Shown: positions 593 to 28,197, counted from the stretch's first letter. The stretch is 36,472 bases of DNA from a virus (IMGVR_UViG_2700989508_000025), one strand, 5' to 3'. The notes: generated from the letters alone by a model not told the origin. Numbers and translations: made by a program.

Positions 593-746
593 AGCGACCT
601 CCCTTACTGTGGTGCTTCCTCTATTCTAAGTTGTACTGATACAGATTCCAATTAACAGCTTGTCTTGTGTGAAAAGTGGAAGTTCACAATTGTGATAGCC
701 ATTACTAACGTTGTGATGTATTAGTCAACGGGAAACAAGGCATCTG

Positions 747-768
747 TAACATATCTATGGATATGTTA
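747..768. promoter_or_regulatory. Perfect 9-bp inverted repeat TAACATATC-N4-GATATGTTA in the ogr/hxsD divergent intergenic region (candidate operator)
   Basis: Read directly: arm 747-755 taacatatc, spacer tatg, arm 760-768 gatatgtta. Lies about 35 bp upstream of the hxsD-like start at 803. Confidence 0.4.
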
Positions 769-802
769 TATTATTGTTGCCATAGGAAAAATCCGCTTTA
801 AA

Positions 803-1117
803 GTGGTTGCTGATCATGAATATTTGTATTGGAAGATAATTGCAATGAGCGAAAGAGTGTTTGAGAAAGAACTATATTCTGAATGGGTTATACGCAATAG
901 TCTATATTGGATGACTCCGCTTACTCGATGGAAACTCCATGAAGACGTTTCCCACTGGATAATCTCTTTTGAAAACGATAATCCCAAATTCCTTTATGAA
1001 TTCGATAGGCTGCTTAATGATTACTCTTTGCGAGAAAAGCTACAGCATAAAACAGGGGCGTTGAGAGACTCTATTGTCCATAAAGTGCTTCGCAGTGTTG
1101 ATGAGAGGCTTTCATAA
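803..1117 (+). CDS. Small protein, first gene of the hxs-like operon (HxsD-like candidate)
   Basis: 104-aa ORF whose TAA stop overlaps the ATG of the next gene (1117). No recognisable motif; the assignment is by operon position only. Confidence 0.4.
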   Translation: MVADHEYLYWKIIAMSERVFEKELYSEWVIRNSLYWMTPLTRWKLHEDVSHWIISFENDNPKFLYEFDRLLNDYSLREKLQHKTGALRDSIVHKVLRSVDERLS

Positions 1118-2505
1118 TGGAATTGATGCCATTTAATTTTGACAGATTGCCTAATGGACAGGTGTTTATAAGCAACCTTGCAGGTTTTCATCATTTCATT
1201 GGTGAGCAAGACCTTATTGATCTTTCTGATGAGCGAATTAGTTCGGAGCAATCAAACGTGCTAGAAAGTAAGCTTTTCATAACCAGTGAAAGCTCATCTG
1301 CTATAACTCCCTATGCTTTAAGTTCTGCTTTTGCAAAACGATTGATGAATGAACTGGCTGTCAGGCCAATTTTCATGATTGTACCCACATTACGTTGTGA
1401 CCATACATGCAAGTATTGCCAGGTTAGTAGAGCTTCTGTTAATGCCTCAGGTTACGACCTAAATCCTGAGCTCATCCCCGATATTATTTCGGCTATTAAA
1501 AAACTATCAACGCCACCTTACAAAATAGAGATACAGGGTGGGGAGCCTCTCTTGCGGTTTGATTTAATTCAGAGCATCTATGATCAATGTGCTGAAACGC
1601 TGGGAAGAACCAATTTTGAGATGGTGGTGGCATCAAGTCTGTCCGTCTTGAATGAGGATATGATTGAATGGTCGAGAGACCGGAACATAACGTTCTCTGT
1701 GTCGCTTGATGGTGAGGAAGTTGTTCACAACAGTAATCGAATTCTTGGTCGTGGGCTTGCGTACAGTAGAACAGTGTCAGGGGTAGAGGCTATCAAACAC
1801 TCTTTAGGTGCTGGCCGCGTTGCAACGGTTACTACAGTTACTAAAGAGCTTATCAAACGTCCTGAATCGATTGTTCAGGCTCACTTGTCTCTTGGTCTCA
1901 AGGACATGTTTATCCGACCTGTTAGTCCCTATGGGTTTGCACAAAAAGCTTCTTTCACCTTTTCTATGGACGAATACTTCAGCTTCTATGCCTCGTTGAT
2001 AGATGAAATCCTTAAGATTAATAATGAAGGGATAAGGGTTGTGGAACATTCGGCCTCCATTCATCTGAAAAGGATCTTCAATCCCGGTTTTAGTGGTTAT
2101 GCGGATTTAAAGTCTCCAAGTGGAGTCGTGCTTAACAGTATTCTTTTCAATTATGACGGTCGAGTATATGGTAGCGATGAGAGCCGTATGTTGCAGAAGG
2201 TGAATCCTGAAACGGAGTTCAGTGCGGGTGAAGTTAAGACGCTATCATTTTCTGATAGTCCTTACTATAACGCAGTATTGAGTTCATCGTTCAATTTTGC
2301 TCTGCCAGGTTGTGATACATGTGCATATCAACCATTTTGTGGTTCAGATCCATGCCAGAACATAAGTGTACAGGGTGAGCCTGTCGGTGATAGGAGTCGT
2401 TCAACGTTTTGTCAATATCACAAGGGGATGTTCAGGTATCTGATGAACTGCATCTCAGAGGGTGGTTCGAAGGCTGAGATGCTAAAAGGATGGGCATATG
2501 TCTGA
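1117..2505 (+). CDS. Radical SAM enzyme with C-terminal SPASM-type Cys cluster (HxsB-like maturase candidate)
   Basis: 462 aa. CxxxCxxC motif in LRCDHTCKYCQ, Gly-rich IQGGEPLL, and a C-terminal Cys-rich segment PGCDTCAYQPFCGSDPCQ typical of SPASM domains. Confidence 0.75.
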   Translation: MELMPFNFDRLPNGQVFISNLAGFHHFIGEQDLIDLSDERISSEQSNVLESKLFITSESSSAITPYALSSAFAKRLMNELAVRPIFMIVPTLRCDHTCKYCQVSRASVNASGYDLNPELIPDIISAIKKLSTPPYKIEIQGGEPLLRFDLIQSIYDQCAETLGRTNFEMVVASSLSVLNEDMIEWSRDRNITFSVSLDGEEVVHNSNRILGRGLAYSRTVSGVEAIKHSLGAGRVATVTTVTKELIKRPESIVQAHLSLGLKDMFIRPVSPYGFAQKASFTFSMDEYFSFYASLIDEILKINNEGIRVVEHSASIHLKRIFNPGFSGYADLKSPSGVVLNSILFNYDGRVYGSDESRMLQKVNPETEFSAGEVKTLSFSDSPYYNAVLSSSFNFALPGCDTCAYQPFCGSDPCQNISVQGEPVGDRSRSTFCQYHKGMFRYLMNCISEGGSKAEMLKGWAYV

Positions 2506-3610
2506 GGTTATCAGGAACGATATCTTTCATTTTGCTTCTACAGAGAACGTGCCCACGGGGTTCTATCGGTTATGCAAACAAAAACCAGTGAACCCTTTAT
2601 TCTTTTTGCCCAATTTGCTAGTAGTTGCTGAAGGCAATAATGATGCCATTCCACCATGCTTTGATTTCTCTGTTATTAGCACTGAATTATTTGAGTCAAT
2701 TGAAGATGGAGATATTGGGATAATCAACAATGGCAATATGATACGCGTTATTCTGTCACGCAAAGCCAATCATAATACTGTCTTAGTTACGGAACGCTGC
2801 AATAACTTGTGTCTGTTTTGTTCGCAGCCACCAAAGAAAATAAATGATGACTGGCTACTTACCCAATCAGCTCTTGCTATAGCTTCATTTGGCTTGAACG
2901 GAGTTGTTGGGGTCAGCGGTGGTGAACCTTTGCTATATGGGGATGACTTCCTTCACTTCATTGATTTTATCATCGAGAATTCACCAGATACTGCTTTACA
3001 TGTTTTAACAAACGGACGCAAATTTGCTGATATCAACTTTACACAGGAAATGGCAAAGCGAAGCAAAAAGATCAAAATCACCTTTGGTATCCCGCTCTAC
3101 TCATCAAGACCACTTGTGCATGATCATCTGGTAGGGAGTGATGGCGCATTTAATGAAACGGTTAAAGGGTTAATCAATGCAGGAAACTTGGGGATTAATA
3201 TCGAACTTAGAGTTATTCCTACACTGGCTAACTATACCGAATTGGATGATATTGTAGAATTCGCTGGCCGTGTGTTCTCCAACATCAATCAGATTTCCCT
3301 TATGGGGTTGGAGCCTATCGGTTGGGCACGAAAAAACTGGTCCACCATCTTCATTGATCACAGTAGTTATAGTGAGAAAATAATCTCTGCCATAGACGCT
3401 GCATACAGGTCAGGCATACCTCTGACAATTTTTAATTATCCTTTGTGTTATCTTCCTGAAAGGGCTAGGGAGCTTGCTGTTCAGTCGATCTCTGATTGGA
3501 AAAATTACTATCCAAAAGAATGTGATGAATGTACTCAGAAGCCTTCCTGTGCTGGCTATTTCAGTTCCTCAAAAGGCCGTTTTCATCAATCACCGAGACC
3601 AATTTTATGA
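2498..3610 (+). CDS. Radical SAM enzyme (HxsC-like maturase candidate)
   Basis: 370 aa. CxxxCxxC in TERCNNLCLFCSQ, Gly-rich VSGGEPLL, and C-terminal Cys residues (CDECTQKPSCAGYF). Overlaps the upstream gene by 8 nt and the downstream gene by ATGA. Confidence 0.75.
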   Translation: MSEVIRNDIFHFASTENVPTGFYRLCKQKPVNPLFFLPNLLVVAEGNNDAIPPCFDFSVISTELFESIEDGDIGIINNGNMIRVILSRKANHNTVLVTERCNNLCLFCSQPPKKINDDWLLTQSALAIASFGLNGVVGVSGGEPLLYGDDFLHFIDFIIENSPDTALHVLTNGRKFADINFTQEMAKRSKKIKITFGIPLYSSRPLVHDHLVGSDGAFNETVKGLINAGNLGINIELRVIPTLANYTELDDIVEFAGRVFSNINQISLMGLEPIGWARKNWSTIFIDHSSYSEKIISAIDAAYRSGIPLTIFNYPLCYLPERARELAVQSISDWKNYYPKECDECTQKPSCAGYFSSSKGRFHQSPRPIL

Positions 3611-4242
3611 AAAAGTTTAATTTTGCTGCTCTACTTCCGGGATTTTTGGCTCTCAACAATTCTGTATGGGCAAGCGATTCATCTACAGGAGCGAGTGATT
3701 TACCTGGTATGACTCTTAATGAGCATGATTTAGTGATAGCTCCACTTAACACGGAAGTCCCATTTTATATCGCAGGGCATCGAAGCCATAGCTCTCATAG
3801 GAGCCATAGCTCTCATAGATCCTCATCAGGTGGTGGATACTATGGTGGAAGTACCCCCTATTATCCAAAAACATACAGCTCACCACGTTCATCTGGTTCT
3901 TCAAGTTCAGGTGCAAGTTCCTCATCGTCCTCTTCCTCGGTGCGTGCACTTCGTTCTAACGATAATAATAGAACCACTAACACGAGTTCTGTTGGAACTT
4001 CAGAGGTTAACCGTACGAGTAATGGGCTTGCTTCTGATGCAGAGAAACGTAAGCGATTGATTATGCGAGTTCAGTTCGCATTGCTGGACAGGGGATTTTA
4101 TAACGGAAATATTGACGGCATAATGGGGCCATCCACAAGGCTGTCTGTGAAAAATTACCGCATTGCGAATGGATTACCGATTCCTGCAACTGAAACACTC
4201 GACACTCAATTGTTAAATTCTTTGAATATATTAGCTCGCTAA
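3607..4242 (+). CDS. Secreted His-Xaa-Ser repeat protein with C-terminal peptidoglycan-binding-like domain (HxsA-like precursor candidate)
   Basis: ATG at 3607 overlaps the hxsC-like stop. N-terminal signal-peptide-like MKKFNFAALLPGFLALNNSVWA. Five consecutive H-x-S triplets (HRSHSSHRSHSSHRS), then a Gly/Tyr and Ser-rich low-complexity stretch. The C-terminus (RVQFALLDRGFYNGNIDGIMGPSTRLSVKNYRIANGLPIPATETLD) resembles the PG_binding_1 fold. Confidence 0.7.
   Translation: MKKFNFAALLPGFLALNNSVWASDSSTGASDLPGMTLNEHDLVIAPLNTEVPFYIAGHRSHSSHRSHSSHRSSSGGGYYGGSTPYYPKTYSSPRSSGSSSSGASSSSSSSSVRALRSNDNNRTTNTSSVGTSEVNRTSNGLASDAEKRKRLIMRVQFALLDRGFYNGNIDGIMGPSTRLSVKNYRIANGLPIPATETLDTQLLNSLNILAR
3784..3819 (+). 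repeat. Tandem 18-bp direct repeat (agccatagctctcatag + g, two copies) encoding the His-Xaa-Ser triplets
   Basis: Read directly from the sequence: 3784-3800 and 3802-3818 are identical 17-mers. Confidence 0.8.
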
Positions 4243-4406
4243 ATCTCAGTGAGGTATAAATAAAAAGCAATAAATTATATTAGTCGCGCGTCCATTATTA
4301 GTGGGTAAGATCAAGGACCGTCTGCTCTGTGTTAGGGGCAGATGGTCAGATAAGACTGTGCCGTTTAGCCCGCTAGTACGTGTCTGGACTAATACATTTA
4401 AGAGTC

Positions 4407-5510
4407 TCATTCTGCTATCCATTCCGGGATTTTTGCCTCAAGCTCAAGCTGCGTGGTAAAGCCGCTGTTATCAATGGTGTGCTCGGCTTTCGCAATAATC
4501 CAGTCCTGATTATCAATCTCGCTTTTAAAGCCTGTTACCGTGCCATGCATTTCGGGGTAGAGTTCTGCGCGTCCACGTGCCAGTGTGATGGAGAACGCTG
4601 CGGCTCCGCGTTGTAGCTGCTGCCACTTTGCCGCCGCTGCGCGTCTTGCTGCCTGCTCGTTCTGATAAGTCTTGCGTAACACAAACACATTGCCTTCCGC
4701 GCCTTCCATATAATCACCTTCACGGCTGCTGCTTTTCTCCTTTTTGGGTTTTGGCGGTTTACGGCGTTTCACGCTGACTTTTTTCTTTTTCCCGTAATTA
4801 AGATCAAGCCAGTAGGCGCGTACCCCCGTATACGCCTCGCGGTCAGCAATACGGAACTGATGGCGATCGCCGCTGCTGCGTGTAATGGCGAACGAGGGCA
4901 ACGGCTGGCCCTGTGCGTTCACGCCACCACCTGGCATGATGAATAACAGATTGCCGCTTTTTACTGTGGTGATTGCGCCCAGCATTTCCGCCATGCGCGT
5001 AAGGAAGGACATGTCGCTTTCTTCGGTCTGGTCGGCGTGGTCGATTTCGATATCCATCAGCATTTCGCTGATTTGCGGTTTCAGACCATACCGATGAGCG
5101 ATGGCGGATACCACACGCTCAACGGTCACATCATGCCAGGACACCTCACGTTTAACGTTAAATTCATCCCGAAAATCTGCGCTTCTGGCTGAAACAGTCA
5201 GCCTGTCCGGCGGTCCTTCGTGAGCGATTTCATCAACAATGTAAGTGCCTTTTTCTGTCAGCGGTTCTCCTTTCCAGCCAATGAGAACCGTCAGGCGCGC
5301 GCCCCGTGGCGGTAGCTGCAACTGACCATCCGCATCATCCAGCGTGATGGTGAGCTGGTCCGCTTCAAATCCCCGGTTGTCGGTCAGTGACAGGCTCATC
5401 AGGCGCTCTGCCACGCCTGACAGCGTTTTACCCTCCGCGAGAATATCAAAATCCGGCATTTTCACGGGGTCTGTGCCCTGACTGAGCAATTGCATGGTGG
5501 TGTCGGTCAT
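4407..5510 (-). CDS. D: Tail protein D (late control gene D family)
   Basis: Track ORF 4407..5642 trimmed to the ATG at 5510 (MTDTTMQLL...), which is preceded by GGGAGGG. Similarity to gpD recognised by eye. Carries a Lys/Pro-rich insert (GKKKKVSVKRRKPPKPKKEK). Confidence 0.8.
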   Translation of the reverse strand: MTDTTMQLLSQGTDPVKMPDFDILAEGKTLSGVAERLMSLSLTDNRGFEADQLTITLDDADGQLQLPPRGARLTVLIGWKGEPLTEKGTYIVDEIAHEGPPDRLTVSARSADFRDEFNVKREVSWHDVTVERVVSAIAHRYGLKPQISEMLMDIEIDHADQTEESDMSFLTRMAEMLGAITTVKSGNLLFIMPGGGVNAQGQPLPSFAITRSSGDRHQFRIADREAYTGVRAYWLDLNYGKKKKVSVKRRKPPKPKKEKSSSREGDYMEGAEGNVFVLRKTYQNEQAARRAAAAKWQQLQRGAAAFSITLARGRAELYPEMHGTVTGFKSEIDNQDWIIAKAEHTIDNSGFTTQLELEAKIPEWIAE

Positions 5511-5667
5511 CTGTTCCCTCCCTGTGCGGCATGGTCGCATGTGCGTGCGGAGGGGGTTACTGCTTTTTGTTGTCGCCGTGGCGGGAGAACGGCGCAGGAG
5601 TGAGATTACGCGCGTGGTGGGTGATGATTGTTGCCGAATCATTTAACGGATACAAGGGGCTGAAGCT

Positions 5668-6852
5668 ATGAGTGAAACTCGTTTTCATGGTGCCCGTGTT
5701 ACGGAAAGTACCGACCTGGTAACAGCGATTAATGATGTTGATTCCAGTGTTATCGGTATCGTGGCAACGGCGGATGATGCGGACGCGGAGCTGTTCCCGC
5801 TGAACAAGCCCACACTGCTGACCCGCGTCAATGACGTGCTGGGAAAATGCGGGACAACGGGGACGCTTTATCGTGCGCTTAAGGCCATTGCAGACCAGGT
5901 GAGCACAAAGGTGATCGTCGTTCGCGTGGCTGAACACAAAGAAGAAGACGGAAAGACGCAGGATCAACTGGTTATCGGTGGTTCTGAATCTGACGGCAGC
6001 TATACGGGGATGTATGCGCTGCTTGTTGCAGAGCAGGATGAAAGCATCGGATACCGTCCGCGTATTCTGGCCGCGCCGGAGCTGGATACGGAGGCGGTGA
6101 CAAAATCCCTGTGCGTGATTGCGGGTAAACTGCGCGCGTTTGTGTATGCCTCATGTCATGGCTGTGACACGATGGCTGATGCGATTACCTACCGCCAGAA
6201 ATTCAACGAACGTGAGGTGATGCTCTTATGGCCGGACTTCATCGCCTACAACCCGAAAAGTGGCAAAAACGAAACGTTCCCCGTGCCTGCCTATGCGTGC
6301 GGCCTTCGTGCGTACATTGACCATGAGCAGGGATGGCACAAATCACTCTCCAACGTTCCGGTTAAGAATGTGCTGGGGATGTCGAGGCATGTGTTCTGGT
6401 CGTTGCAGGCCGAAGACAGTGATGCCAACAGCCTCAACAACAAAGAAATCACGACCATTATTCGTCGCAACGGGTTCCGCTTCTGGGGCAACCGCACACC
6501 GGAAACGAACGCCTACATCTTTGAGGTGTATACCCGAACCGCACAGGTGCTGGCTGATTCAATTGCGGAAGCGCAGTTTGAAACCATCGACAGTCCACTG
6601 ACGCCTGCGAACGTGAAAGATGTTATCAGTGCCATCAGGGCAAAACTGGATTCACTGGTTACTGCCGGGAAACTGATTGGGGCGTCGTGCTGGTATGACG
6701 TGGTGGATAACGGCACCACGGATTTACGTCAGGGGCGTGTGCGTATTCGCTACAAATATACGCCCGTTCCGCCACTGGAAGACATGGAGCTTTACCAGAC
6801 GTTTACTGATGAATTCTTTGGTCCCGCATTTGCGGTGCTGGGAGGTGCCTGA
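5668..6852 (+). CDS. FI: Contractile tail sheath protein FI
   Basis: 394 aa, the size of P2 FI (about 396 aa), followed immediately by the tube gene. Sheath-like sequence recognised by eye. Confidence 0.85.
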   Translation: MSETRFHGARVTESTDLVTAINDVDSSVIGIVATADDADAELFPLNKPTLLTRVNDVLGKCGTTGTLYRALKAIADQVSTKVIVVRVAEHKEEDGKTQDQLVIGGSESDGSYTGMYALLVAEQDESIGYRPRILAAPELDTEAVTKSLCVIAGKLRAFVYASCHGCDTMADAITYRQKFNEREVMLLWPDFIAYNPKSGKNETFPVPAYACGLRAYIDHEQGWHKSLSNVPVKNVLGMSRHVFWSLQAEDSDANSLNNKEITTIIRRNGFRFWGNRTPETNAYIFEVYTRTAQVLADSIAEAQFETIDSPLTPANVKDVISAIRAKLDSLVTAGKLIGASCWYDVVDNGTTDLRQGRVRIRYKYTPVPPLEDMELYQTFTDEFFGPAFAVLGGA

Positions 6853-11348: not shown

Positions 11349-11399
11349 CTCTTAACCTTATAATATGTGTCGTCTGAAATAATAATTAAGGAGATTATC

Positions 11400-11972
11400 G
11401 TGCTGTCTTACTTAATGGCAATTCACTTTGTTTTATTTGGGAACTCTACTAATTTAAAAAACTTCTGGAAATATGAAGTAATTCGGCGGAAACGTATGGA
11501 TATCTGGAGGCTTTTAAGAGAGAAAAAACAGCGTAACCGGAATTTCCTTTTCTGGTGGCGGTTGGCTAACGAAATGTATATTAATGGTAATAAATTACAT
11601 AAGAAAGCAGCCAAAAAGTTAAACAGTAAAATAATTAACAAATTTGGTTGTGAAATTGGATTGGGCGCAAATATTGGAAAAGGGTTAACAATTCCCCATC
11701 ATGCTGGAATTGTTGTTCATTTTGCTGTTGATGCTGGTGAAAATCTGGTGTTACGACAGAATACGACCATTGGACAGATAGATGGTGACATACCTGGTTC
11801 AAGAGTAAAAATTGGTAGCAACGTTGATATCGGAGCTAATTGTTGCATCATTGGATTATCCCGTAAAATTGGGGATAATGTAAAAATAGGTGCAATGTCT
11901 TTTATAAATAAAGATATACCATCGAACTGCACATATATAACTAAAAAGAGCGGTGCTGTATTGTATAAATAG
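11400..11972 (+). CDS. Hexapeptide-repeat (left-handed beta-helix) acetyltransferase, serine/sugar O-acetyltransferase-like
   Basis: Repeated [LIV]-G-x-x-x-x-I motifs (GANIGKGLTI, KIGSNVDIGANCCIIG, KIGDNVKIGA). Start placed at GTG 11400, preceded by AAGGAG at 11388-11393; the track ORF starts at an earlier GTG (11367). Region is AT-rich by eye. Confidence 0.7.
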   Translation: MLSYLMAIHFVLFGNSTNLKNFWKYEVIRRKRMDIWRLLREKKQRNRNFLFWWRLANEMYINGNKLHKKAAKKLNSKIINKFGCEIGLGANIGKGLTIPHHAGIVVHFAVDAGENLVLRQNTTIGQIDGDIPGSRVKIGSNVDIGANCCIIGLSRKIGDNVKIGAMSFINKDIPSNCTYITKKSGAVLYK

Positions 11973-26921: not shown

Positions 26922-27233
26922 TTATTCGGGAAATAATGCCCGGATATTTCCGGCCATCTGACTGGTTATCTGTGCGGTTGATACTGGCTGTGACGCGGGG
27001 CATTCTGTCCTGGTTTGTGTCACTGATAACGCCTCATCGTCAGCCCATGCAGCCAGTCGGTAAGCCTCTGCTGGATTCATTTTCAGAAGTGCCAGCCCGG
27101 CCAGAAAAGCCACGCGTTGGCCGCTTTTGCGGGCTTCTGGTGTAAGGCTGTCCAGCCAGGCGCATGCTTCGCTTTCGTTCTTGACGGCCGCAGGCTTCAG
27201 ATAGAAACTTATCCGTCTGGTTGGTGTCGTCAT
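26922..27233 (-). CDS. parR: ParR-like centromere-binding adaptor (plasmid partition / StbB-like)
   Basis: Track ORF trimmed to MTTPTRRISFYLKPAAVKNESEACAWLDSL...AFLAGLALLK, which resembles the N-terminal ribbon-helix-helix region of R1 ParR (RRTIAFKLNP...ALTAGLALYR) from memory. Lies immediately downstream of parM. Confidence 0.6.
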   Translation of the reverse strand: MTTPTRRISFYLKPAAVKNESEACAWLDSLTPEARKSGQRVAFLAGLALLKMNPAEAYRLAAWADDEALSVTQTRTECPASQPVSTAQITSQMAGNIRALFPE

Positions 27234-27237
27234 TGGT

Positions 27238-28197
27238 TTACTCCTTGTCCATTGCGTACAGCCCATTAACCAGAGCAAACTGTGGCACCCCGTCCGCGAT
27301 GAAAGTCGCATTAACTCCGCAGGCTTCGCGGATAGCGGGTGCCACAATCTCCGCCCCTCCACCGACAACCATCACCCGCCCGTAACCCGAAAAAACCGCC
27401 AGCGCGCGGATCACGCGTTGTTTCAGTGTTTCTTCCTTTTCACGAATAACCGCCATCAGGCTGGCGTAATGCGCGTCATTGTGGATGTGCTGGCGCAGCC
27501 AGGCTTCATCATGGCGATGTTCGATAATGGTATTGGCGATGTGGTGACTGGTGCGCATACCGTTAGTGGCCATCACCGCCAGTACGGCATCGGCCATCAG
27601 AGAAACGCCTACGTGTGGATCGCAAAACACCTGGCTGATACCTGCCAGGTGCCCCTGAACCTTTGCCACATCCAGCGTGGTTCCGCCCAAATCCACAATC
27701 AGCAGGGATTCAAACGGACTCATGTCAGCCAGTGCCTTAAAGCCAGCCGGAATGGATTCAGGCATAACCCGCACGTTACGGATAGTGAATGCTTCGCCGT
27801 TCTGGTACTCCACCGGGCGCATAACGTTCGCTTTTTTGCGGTTGATGTTGGCCATGTCCGGCTGTGCGTTTGTGTCGAAATACTCGCTCAGTGGCAGGGT
27901 GACAACCACATCCACCTCCTGTGGTGTGATGCCTGATTTGACCAGCGCGTGATGAATGGCAATGACATTCACATCGCTGTATTGGTATTGCGTGTCGGTC
28001 GTCTGGACAAAGCGATCGCTGACCGGATCAAAACCATAGCGCACGCCATCAAGCATGTAGTTCGCGGGCTGCGTGCCACCGAACGGCGCAGACCATTCCG
28101 ACTTGAAGCTGTTCGGGCTGATGGCGTTGCGGCGTTCGCCGTTCTCAGTCCATGCCAGCTTGATGTTGGTGGAGCCGTCGTCGATACAAATTTTCAT
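27238..28197 (-). CDS. parM: ParM/StbA-family actin-like segregation ATPase
   Basis: 319 aa. Strong resemblance to R1 ParM throughout (MKICIDDGSTNIKLAW, SDVNVIAIHHAL, VMPESIPAG, DLGGTTLD, VVGGGAE). SD AAGGAAAAG sits upstream of the ATG at 28197. Confidence 0.85.
   Translation of the reverse strand: MKICIDDGSTNIKLAWTENGERRNAISPNSFKSEWSAPFGGTQPANYMLDGVRYGFDPVSDRFVQTTDTQYQYSDVNVIAIHHALVKSGITPQEVDVVVTLPLSEYFDTNAQPDMANINRKKANVMRPVEYQNGEAFTIRNVRVMPESIPAGFKALADMSPFESLLIVDLGGTTLDVAKVQGHLAGISQVFCDPHVGVSLMADAVLAVMATNGMRTSHHIANTIIEHRHDEAWLRQHIHNDAHYASLMAVIREKEETLKQRVIRALAVFSGYGRVMVVGGGAEIVAPAIREACGVNATFIADGVPQFALVNGLYAMDKE

Follow-up and report, generated by a model that had tools for sequence, protein, structure and literature searches.

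The hxsDBCA cassette

IMGVR_UViG_2700989508_000025 is a viral sequence of 36,472 nucleotides (the window, which is the whole stretch of DNA that we analyzed). Between tail gene D and the late-gene activator ogr, it contains four genes, hxsD, hxsB, hxsC, and hxsA, which together make up a His-Xaa-Ser (HXS) system. All four genes are on the plus strand, in the order D-B-C-A (Table 1), so that the cassette is divergent from ogr and convergent with D. Successive open reading frames (ORFs) overlap by 1, 8, and 4 bases; none of the four frames is interrupted, and the genes are translationally coupled. A first-pass annotation, made from the sequence alone, had described this arrangement, and the ORF positions and overlaps agree with it. 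It had also judged the block to be AT-rich by eye, and the G+C content of the inserted block is indeed 0.414, versus 0.532 in the rest of the window (0.36-0.45 along the block and 0.51-0.60 in the phage genes).

Table 1. Coordinates of the cassette, its boundaries, and its candidate regulatory features, counted from the first letter of the window.
Feature	Start	End	Strand	Description
ogr	332	592	-	late-gene activator, left boundary of the hotspot; Pfam Ogr_Delta 52.3 bits; annotated by PGAP
inserted block	633	4409	.	3,777 bp relative to P88; begins 41 bp upstream of the start codon of ogr
transferable HXS module	741	4245	+	promoter region and hxsDBCA; common to the ssrA-island copies
candidate hxs promoter	746	774	+	GTAACA-17-TATTAT; 9/12 sigma-70 consensus positions
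hxsD	845	1117	+	90 aa accessory protein; TIGR03976 90.6 bits (cut-off 50)
hxsB	1117	2505	+	462 aa radical SAM maturase; TIGR03978 560 bits (cut-off 370); Pfam Radical_SAM
hxsC	2498	3610	+	370 aa radical SAM maturase; TIGR03977 397.5 bits (cut-off 267.9); phrog_15140 E = 2e-164
hxsA	3607	4242	+	211 aa effector precursor; TIGR03979 161.8 bits (cut-off 121.65)
13-bp hairpin	4316	4347	+	GACCGTCTGCTCT-6-GGGGCAGATGGTC; right flank, between convergent hxsA and D; no T-run
tail gene D	4407	5642	-	411-codon open frame, right boundary of the hotspot; Pfam Phage_GPD 62.7 bits

As the test of family membership, we used the curated equivalog cut-offs from NCBIfam. All four proteins score above them (Table 1), which agrees with the Hxs-family assignment of the first-pass annotation. 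Pfam's Radical_SAM family matched both HxsB and HxsC. The cassette is 100% identical to positions 2405960-2409773 of Escherichia coli O26:H11 str. 11368 (NC_013361.1) and to sequences from other strains, and at the identical sequence from 11368, RefSeq names the genes hxsD, hxsB, hxsC, and hxsA. So the system is already named and annotated at this exact sequence, and it was functionally characterized in 2026 (see below). Other resources are less specific. PHROGs contains families that are near-identical to HxsC (phrog_15140) and to the C-terminal half of HxsB (phrog_24150), but these are labelled only as "radical SAM domain-containing protein" or as of unknown function. PADLOC-DB v2 has no model for HXS. 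Its only matches to the cassette were to the radical SAM proteins of pVip, and at 28 bits these were too weak for us to assign the cassette to a known PADLOC-DB model.

HxsD begins at ATG 845, which gives a protein of 90 amino acids; PGAP chose the same start. We rejected the upstream GTG at 803 because the frame between the two is not conserved and has a stop codon in a class of cassettes that is 91% identical. HxsD contains the motifs LYW (residues 20-22) and LLNDYSLRE (residues 56-64), and L20, Y21, W22, N58, D59, and L62 are invariant across 45 homologues. The AlphaFold2 model of HxsD has a pLDDT (predicted local distance difference test) of 94.9. Its fold is not that of PqqD or of an RRE, which is the recognition element of pathways for RiPPs (ribosomally synthesized and post-translationally modified peptides). 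A PqqD-like RRE has three strands and then three helices. By this comparison, HxsD is not an RRE-type partner.

HxsB contains the radical SAM motif C94-x3-C98-x2-C101 and QGGEPLL. HxsC contains C101-x3-C105-x2-C108 and SGGEPLL. Two radical SAM enzymes with exactly these kinds of motifs had been proposed from the sequence, along with "SPASM-like" C-terminal cysteines in both. For HxsB, the SPASM-like label comes from the spacing of its cysteines and from alignment: its C-terminal cysteines (C399, C402, C408, C413, C432, and C445) include a CX2CX5CX4C pattern, and it aligns over its full length to models of SPASM maturases, including PapB, anSME, and CbpB. The nearest solved sequence is CteB (5WGG), a thioether-forming maturase. 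For HxsC, whose C-terminal cysteines are C342, C345, and C351 and whose nearest solved relative is SkfB (6EFN), the label is not supported. Pfam's SPASM family did not match the C-terminal 91 amino acids of HxsB or the C-terminal 69 amino acids of HxsC, even at E <= 10.

HxsA was described in the first-pass annotation as a secreted protein with five consecutive HxS triplets, and we see both features. Its N terminus is a 22-residue signal peptide of the Sec type, MKKFNFAALLPGFLALNNSVWA; we judged this by eye, and residues 1-22 are also assigned as the signal peptide in the published study of the system (PMC13128918). The signal peptide is followed by an acidic region (residues 23-57), the five HxS triplets (HRSHSSHRSHSSHRS, residues 58-72, with SHRSS at 69-73), a serine-rich linker, and a peptidoglycan-binding domain at about residues 150-205. 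The match of this last domain to PG_binding_1 scores 22.3 bits, which is just below the gathering score of 23.

Across 32 loci from many Enterobacterales, the first ~100 residues of HxsA (window positions 3607-3906) are nearly invariant. These residues include the signal peptide, the acidic region, the HxS array, and a GGGYYGG stretch. Across loci, the identity of HxsB falls to ~72% and that of HxsD to ~48%, and the serine-rich linker of HxsA varies as well. Judging from these alignments, the N-terminal ~100 amino acids of HxsA are under unusually strong constraint.

Cargo of a P88-like prophage

The window is an entire P88-like prophage (genus Xuanwuvirus, in the P2 family) of E. coli, and it lies between ihfA and btuC. 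It contains an integrase, an immunity region, a replication endonuclease, and head, lysis, and tail genes. The sequences that flank the cassette are 95-97% identical to Escherichia phage P88 and to other phages of Xuanwuvirus/Peduoviridae, and D is 97.6% identical to the D gene of P88 at the nucleotide level. When we compared the window to P88 with blastn, positions 1-632 and 4410-6500 aligned. These two segments are only 11 bp apart in P88, so positions 633-4409 must be the inserted block. The last three inserted bases (4407-4409) are the stop codon of D, which is where the alignment to P88 breaks off.

In related phages, the junction between D and ogr is either empty or filled with something else. 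D adjoins ogr without an insert in P88, PhiR44_2, Shae_phiSM, P884B11, and Chuche. The junction in phage 500465-2 contains an unrelated gene of 340 amino acids (L002:2284-3306) with a weak match to HEPN RiboL-PSP, and the junction in phage 520873 contains an unrelated gene of 132 amino acids. More broadly, the ogr/D backbone was matched in 1,531 of 5,426 complete E. coli genomes, and just 46 of these 1,531 contain the full-length ogr-HXS-D arrangement. For a census of the junction, we took an evenly spaced sample of the ranked matches. Both flanks were present in 26 of the sampled rows; the junction was empty in 16 of these and held other cargo in 10. The other cargo at this junction includes PIN-domain, DUF3800, ComF-family, and YecA-family proteins and pairs of hypothetical proteins. 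None of the alternative cargo, including the 340-amino-acid protein from 500465-2, had a match in PADLOC.

The cassette is cargo, as the first-pass annotation had proposed, and not a conserved core component of this phage lineage. The 164-bp right flank (positions 4246-4409) is present only in the 46 genomes that carry the cassette, which argues for a single acquisition and for later spread with the prophage lineage. These sequence comparisons point to one probable acquisition, of a 3.8-kb block of low G+C content, at a variable D-ogr site.

At the DNA level, we did not find HXS in any deposited phage genome. The only matches in phages were at the protein level: one was to a Leptospira LE1-like phage (35% identity, annotated as hxsC) and the other was to a faecal contig (27% identity). 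IMG/VR has eight contigs with close relatives of HxsC; four represent the P88-like prophage described here, and the rest are integrase/relaxase islands.

The cassettes of E. coli fall into classes by their identity to the window: 50 genomes have cassettes at 95% identity or above (the prophage type), 35 have cassettes at ~90-91%, and 58 have cassettes at ~75%. The module at positions 741-4245, promoter region included, is shared with the island copies at 91% identity (35 genomes) or at ~72-75% identity (58 genomes). More precisely, homology to the other classes runs from TGTAACAT (at about position 745) to 3 bases past the stop codon of hxsA. Since the shared part is limited to this module, the prophage carries a minimal four-gene unit. 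This agrees with the report that four genes suffice for activity (PMC13128918).

We examined four copies from the ~91% and ~75% classes, and each of them lies in an island that encodes an integrase and a relaxase. Integration at ssrA is seen for three of these islands (L005, L006, and L008). The fourth (L007) has neither ssrA nor a tyrosine-type integrase within the stretch that we examined. Two of the islands (L005 and L008) have ABC-three-component genes beside the cassette. In all four, hxsA is directly followed by a gene of the DUF6119/TIGR04141 family, which is absent from the prophage cassette. Of 29 GTDB species representatives, at least 17 also have this gene adjoining hxsA. It begins ~20-70 bp past hxsA and encodes a "sporadically distributed" protein of ~530-550 amino acids (L005:12530-14173, L006:11447-13054, and L007:12517-14121, as well as many of the loci L018-L045). 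It has no match in PADLOC. The DUF6119/TIGR04141 protein could be a fifth and optional partner of HXS, or it could be a separate defense gene. In none of the 29 GTDB representatives do D, ogr, or sheath genes adjoin the HXS genes.

The prophage type accounts for 46 of the ~155 complete E. coli genomes that have HXS (~30%). A published survey found that 77% of the hxs operons of E. coli lie outside of the prophages called by geNomad, and described them as typically chromosomal (PMC13128918); our prophage share agrees with this figure in magnitude. Our small sample of four island copies suggests that the remaining, non-prophage copies in E. coli are on mobile elements as well.

The flanks of the cassette contain a few candidate regulatory features. 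The candidate hxs promoter overlaps a perfect 9-4-9 palindrome, TAACATATC-tatg-GATATGTTA, at positions 747-768. The -35 half of the promoter and the left arm of the palindrome are kept in all classes of cassette and the right arm is partly kept, but the palindrome is perfect only in the window's own sequence class. Given its position and its conservation, we consider a promoter at 746-774 to be plausible. The ogr gene has its own promoter-like site at 651-623 on the minus strand. The divergent promoter-like sites of hxs and ogr are ~95 bp apart and do not overlap. The first-pass annotation had read the palindrome as "operator-like" and the intergenic region as a shared promoter region, and neither reading is supported.

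At the other end of the block, the terminator scan called no intrinsic terminator between hxsA and D. Positions 4240-4410 are a structured stretch of 170 nucleotides, with a predicted folding energy of -53.5 kcal/mol (z = -3.87). The hairpin within this stretch (Table 1) has three G-U pairs, which make it stronger in the plus-strand RNA. It could be a stabilizer of the 3' end, an atypical terminator, or a scar from recombination.

The annotation of D itself is inconsistent. Its frame is uninterrupted for 411 codons in the window, and the annotated protein from P88 has 366 amino acids. In this region, PGAP calls only a 265-amino-acid "VgrG/Pvc8 family" protein, together with a partial pseudogene on the opposite strand. 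The sequences that received the 265-amino-acid call are identical to the window (01_3327) or ~99.6% identical to it (O26 11368) over this region. The short call looks like an artefact of annotation rather than a truncated gene.

Function of the prophage-borne cassette

The first-pass annotation stated that the function of HXS had not been established experimentally. That statement has been overtaken: Li et al. (Nat Commun 2026, PMC13128918; bioRxiv January 2026) showed that HXS blocks the entry of phage DNA. Among the three roles that the annotation had offered (lysogenic conversion, modification of the envelope, or defense against phages), it is the anti-phage role that experiments have established for the system. 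In that study, hxsDBCA from E. coli MEM (CP012378) was cloned on a plasmid and studied in strains MG1655 and BL21. The clone was reported to be expressed from its endogenous promoter, and HxsB, HxsC, and HxsD were below the limit of detection by Western blot. It restricted 110 of 113 coliphages; those that escaped were T4, a second Tequatrovirus, and P1. The phages adsorbed normally and there was no abortive infection, but their DNA entered with a delay. Each of the four genes was required, and the four were sufficient.

Li et al. also described the maturation of HxsA. Cleavage of its N terminus requires HxsB, HxsC, and HxsD, and HxsC binds HxsD. Matured HxsA has a modification of +8 Da on SHRSS, in the last HxS repeat. 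The processed protein is periplasmic, and it binds DNA in vitro. For activity, HxsA needs its signal peptide, residues 23-47, every one of its five HxS repeats, and the peptidoglycan-binding domain. The gene order D-B-C-A was found in 99.6% of systems.

These results would be expected to carry over to the prophage cassette. All of the residues that Li et al. mutated are present in it, and the published numbering is kept for HxsB (C98/C101 and C399/C402) and for HxsC (C105/C108 and C342/C345). The motifs of HxsD are offset by -2 relative to the published numbering, which fits the 92-amino-acid "MAMCER..." variants that are found in other classes of cassette. And since the N terminus of HxsA is near-identical across Enterobacterales, MEM's HxsA very probably has the same substrate region as the HxsA of the window.

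Given this evidence, we believe that the block is very probably an intact HXS anti-phage system that is carried as accessory cargo by a P88-like temperate phage of the P2 family. In the lysogen, a promoter that belongs to the cassette and lies upstream of hxsD would drive the hxs genes, with no dependence on the late genes of the phage. In the cytoplasm, HxsB and HxsC, together with HxsD (which would bind to HxsC), are predicted to process the HxsA precursor, as was shown for the homologous operon. By analogy to that operon, this processing would comprise the N-terminal cleavage and the +8 Da modification of SHRSS. After export, mature HxsA would be anchored to the peptidoglycan by its C-terminal domain, where the basic HxS array would hinder the translocation of incoming phage DNA. 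Infection would be halted before the genome enters, and the cell would not be killed. For the prophage, the benefit would be a broad-spectrum exclusion of superinfecting phages that protects both the host and the resident phage.

Several observations weigh against this proposal. The data on phage resistance are from the MEM operon, and expression from the prophage is our inference. The MEM operon is probably from a different sequence class than the window's cassette, as its HxsD numbering is shifted by +2 (which implies an apparent length of 92 amino acids instead of 90) and its HxsA has 214 amino acids instead of 211. The promoter match is weak (9/12), and promoter-like matches are not enriched in the region (13, versus 8.9 +/- 2.7 in shuffled sequences). 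Also, Li et al. left the mechanism of the entry block open: the binding of DNA was seen in vitro only, binding of HxsA to gp15 or gp16 of T7 was not detected, and the mutants could not be assayed for the +8 Da modification.

We considered two alternatives. The first is that hxsDBCA is a RiPP-like pathway whose main role is not defense but metal binding, remodelling of the envelope, or lysogenic conversion of the cell surface, and that phage resistance is a side effect of over-expression from a plasmid. The full-length alignment of HxsB to peptide-modifying maturases and the proximity of HxsC to SkfB fit this scenario, the repeated histidines and serines of HxsA are plausible ligands for a metal, and the published phenotypes were obtained with a plasmid clone. 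But over-expression is unlikely, given that the clone used its endogenous promoter and that three of its four proteins were too scarce to be detected. Furthermore, the defense was broad, every gene and motif was needed for it, and in all of the genomes that we examined, the cassette is on a mobile element, either beside cargo of a defensive type (ABC-three-component) or in a prophage hotspot. We consider this first alternative improbable.

The second alternative, that the block is a recently acquired and inactive passenger that is silent or decaying in the lysogen, seems slightly less probable still: no canonical terminator was found, the promoter match is weak, and some cassettes elsewhere are disrupted by insertion sequences (hxsC by ISVsa5 in strain B1S11, and two cassettes of the 91% class by IS3), but the four coupled frames of the prophage cassette are intact, the functionally tested residues are all conserved, and the listed complete copies, from hosts and pathotypes as unrelated as O26 Shiga toxin-producing E. 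coli (STEC), porcine enterotoxigenic E. coli (ETEC), poultry, and an armadillo, are 99.4-100% identical with their frames kept.

An apparently complete P2-family prophage carries HXS as cargo in at least 46 complete genomes of E. coli, among them O26:H11 STEC and porcine ETEC. HXS is an unusual kind of defense, in that a periplasmic protein that is matured by radical SAM enzymes stops the entry of phage DNA. Its presence in this prophage and in the islands indicates that HXS travels on mobile elements and that the prophage form would act for the benefit of the phage. This context qualifies the view of Li et al. that HXS is an intrinsic chromosomal defense that is distinct from the exclusion systems of phages. 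It is also relevant to phage therapy and to phage typing of the pathotypes that carry the prophage. To what was already known about HXS, we add the exact hotspot, the minimal four-gene unit, and evidence that the other E. coli copies that we examined are in mobilizable islands at ssrA.

Beyond HXS itself, the value of this locus lies in its phage-borne context and in the other genes that occupy the D-ogr junction. We tentatively suggest that the D-ogr junction of P88-like prophages might be a defense hotspot, with HXS as one of several interchangeable immunity cargos; with similar reservations, HXS might also spare the prophage's own type of contractile-tailed phage, because the myoviruses T4 and P1 are among the three phages that escape it. 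The genes at this junction that encode the PIN-domain, DUF3800, ComF-family, and YecA-family proteins and the paired hypothetical proteins, along with the gene for the 340-amino-acid protein with the weak HEPN match, are candidate defense genes.

Other prophage cargo and comparison with known systems

Three other loci in the prophage are of note. At the end beside ihfA, a type I toxin-antitoxin locus of the hok/sok type occupies positions 1-287 on the minus strand. It includes an ORF of 46 amino acids at 1-141, which PGAP annotates as a Hok/Gef family protein, and a match to Rfam's sok at 128-287 (48.3 bits, which is under the gathering score of 59; E = 9e-9). Sequences that are related to hok/sok are found in many Shiga toxin phages. 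On the plus strand at 11367-11972, there is an ORF of 201 amino acids (190 according to PGAP) that PGAP annotates as a serine acetyltransferase and that weakly matches Hexapep in Pfam. It lies between the tail gene that follows the tape-measure gene and a tail-fibre assembly gene, where P2 has its Z/fun-type hotspot, and it may be surface-modifying or defensive cargo. Finally, positions 26922-28197 on the minus strand encode ParM, which matches StbA_N and the C-terminal domain of ParM (E = 1e-82), and a partition protein of the Plasmid_stab_B family. This pair lies at the classical hotspot between the replication and portal genes, where P2 carries old/tin. Partition genes are unusual cargo for an integrated P2-like prophage.

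The closest characterized relative of the cassette is the HXS system of E. coli MEM. The two systems have the same four families, the same D-B-C-A order, the same numbering of the cysteines in HxsB and HxsC, and the same HxsD motifs. Their HxsA proteins have the same layout, with a signal peptide, five HxS repeats that end in SHRSS, and a peptidoglycan-binding domain. Besides the small differences in length discussed above, they differ in context: the copy in the window lies within a P88-like prophage at the D-ogr junction, whereas Li et al. describe the hxs operons as typically chromosomal. The HXS copies in the ssrA islands share the 741-4245 module with the prophage, and differ from it in that they add the DUF6119/TIGR04141 gene after hxsA.

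The site of the insertion is similar to the old/tin and Z/fun hotspots of P2-like phages (Rousset et al. 2022), which are likewise variable slots with conserved core genes on both sides and varied cargo of low G+C content in phages that are nearly identical elsewhere. The slot described here, between D and ogr in phages of the P88/Xuanwuvirus lineage, is a different one. HXS, radical SAM, and ogr are mentioned neither by Rousset et al. 2022 nor in a 2026 preprint on P2 and P4 (10.64898/2026.02.27.708500).

As for the enzymes, HxsB and HxsC resemble CteB (5WGG) and SkfB (6EFN) in having a radical SAM core, C-terminal clusters of cysteines, and a ribosomally made substrate. In contrast to those systems, the substrate of HXS is an exported protein of 211 amino acids, Pfam's SPASM is undetectable, and HxsD does not have the PqqD/RRE fold. 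HXS resembles the maturation of RiPPs in outline, but it fails the specific test of an RRE.

In its effect, a prophage-borne HXS would be most like the Imm and Sp exclusion systems of T4, which are discussed by Li et al.: each would be encoded by a phage, would act at the envelope, and would block the entry of a genome without killing the cell. HXS has no sequence relationship to Imm or Sp. It is distinguished from them by its broad spectrum and by an effector that needs to be matured by radical SAM enzymes.

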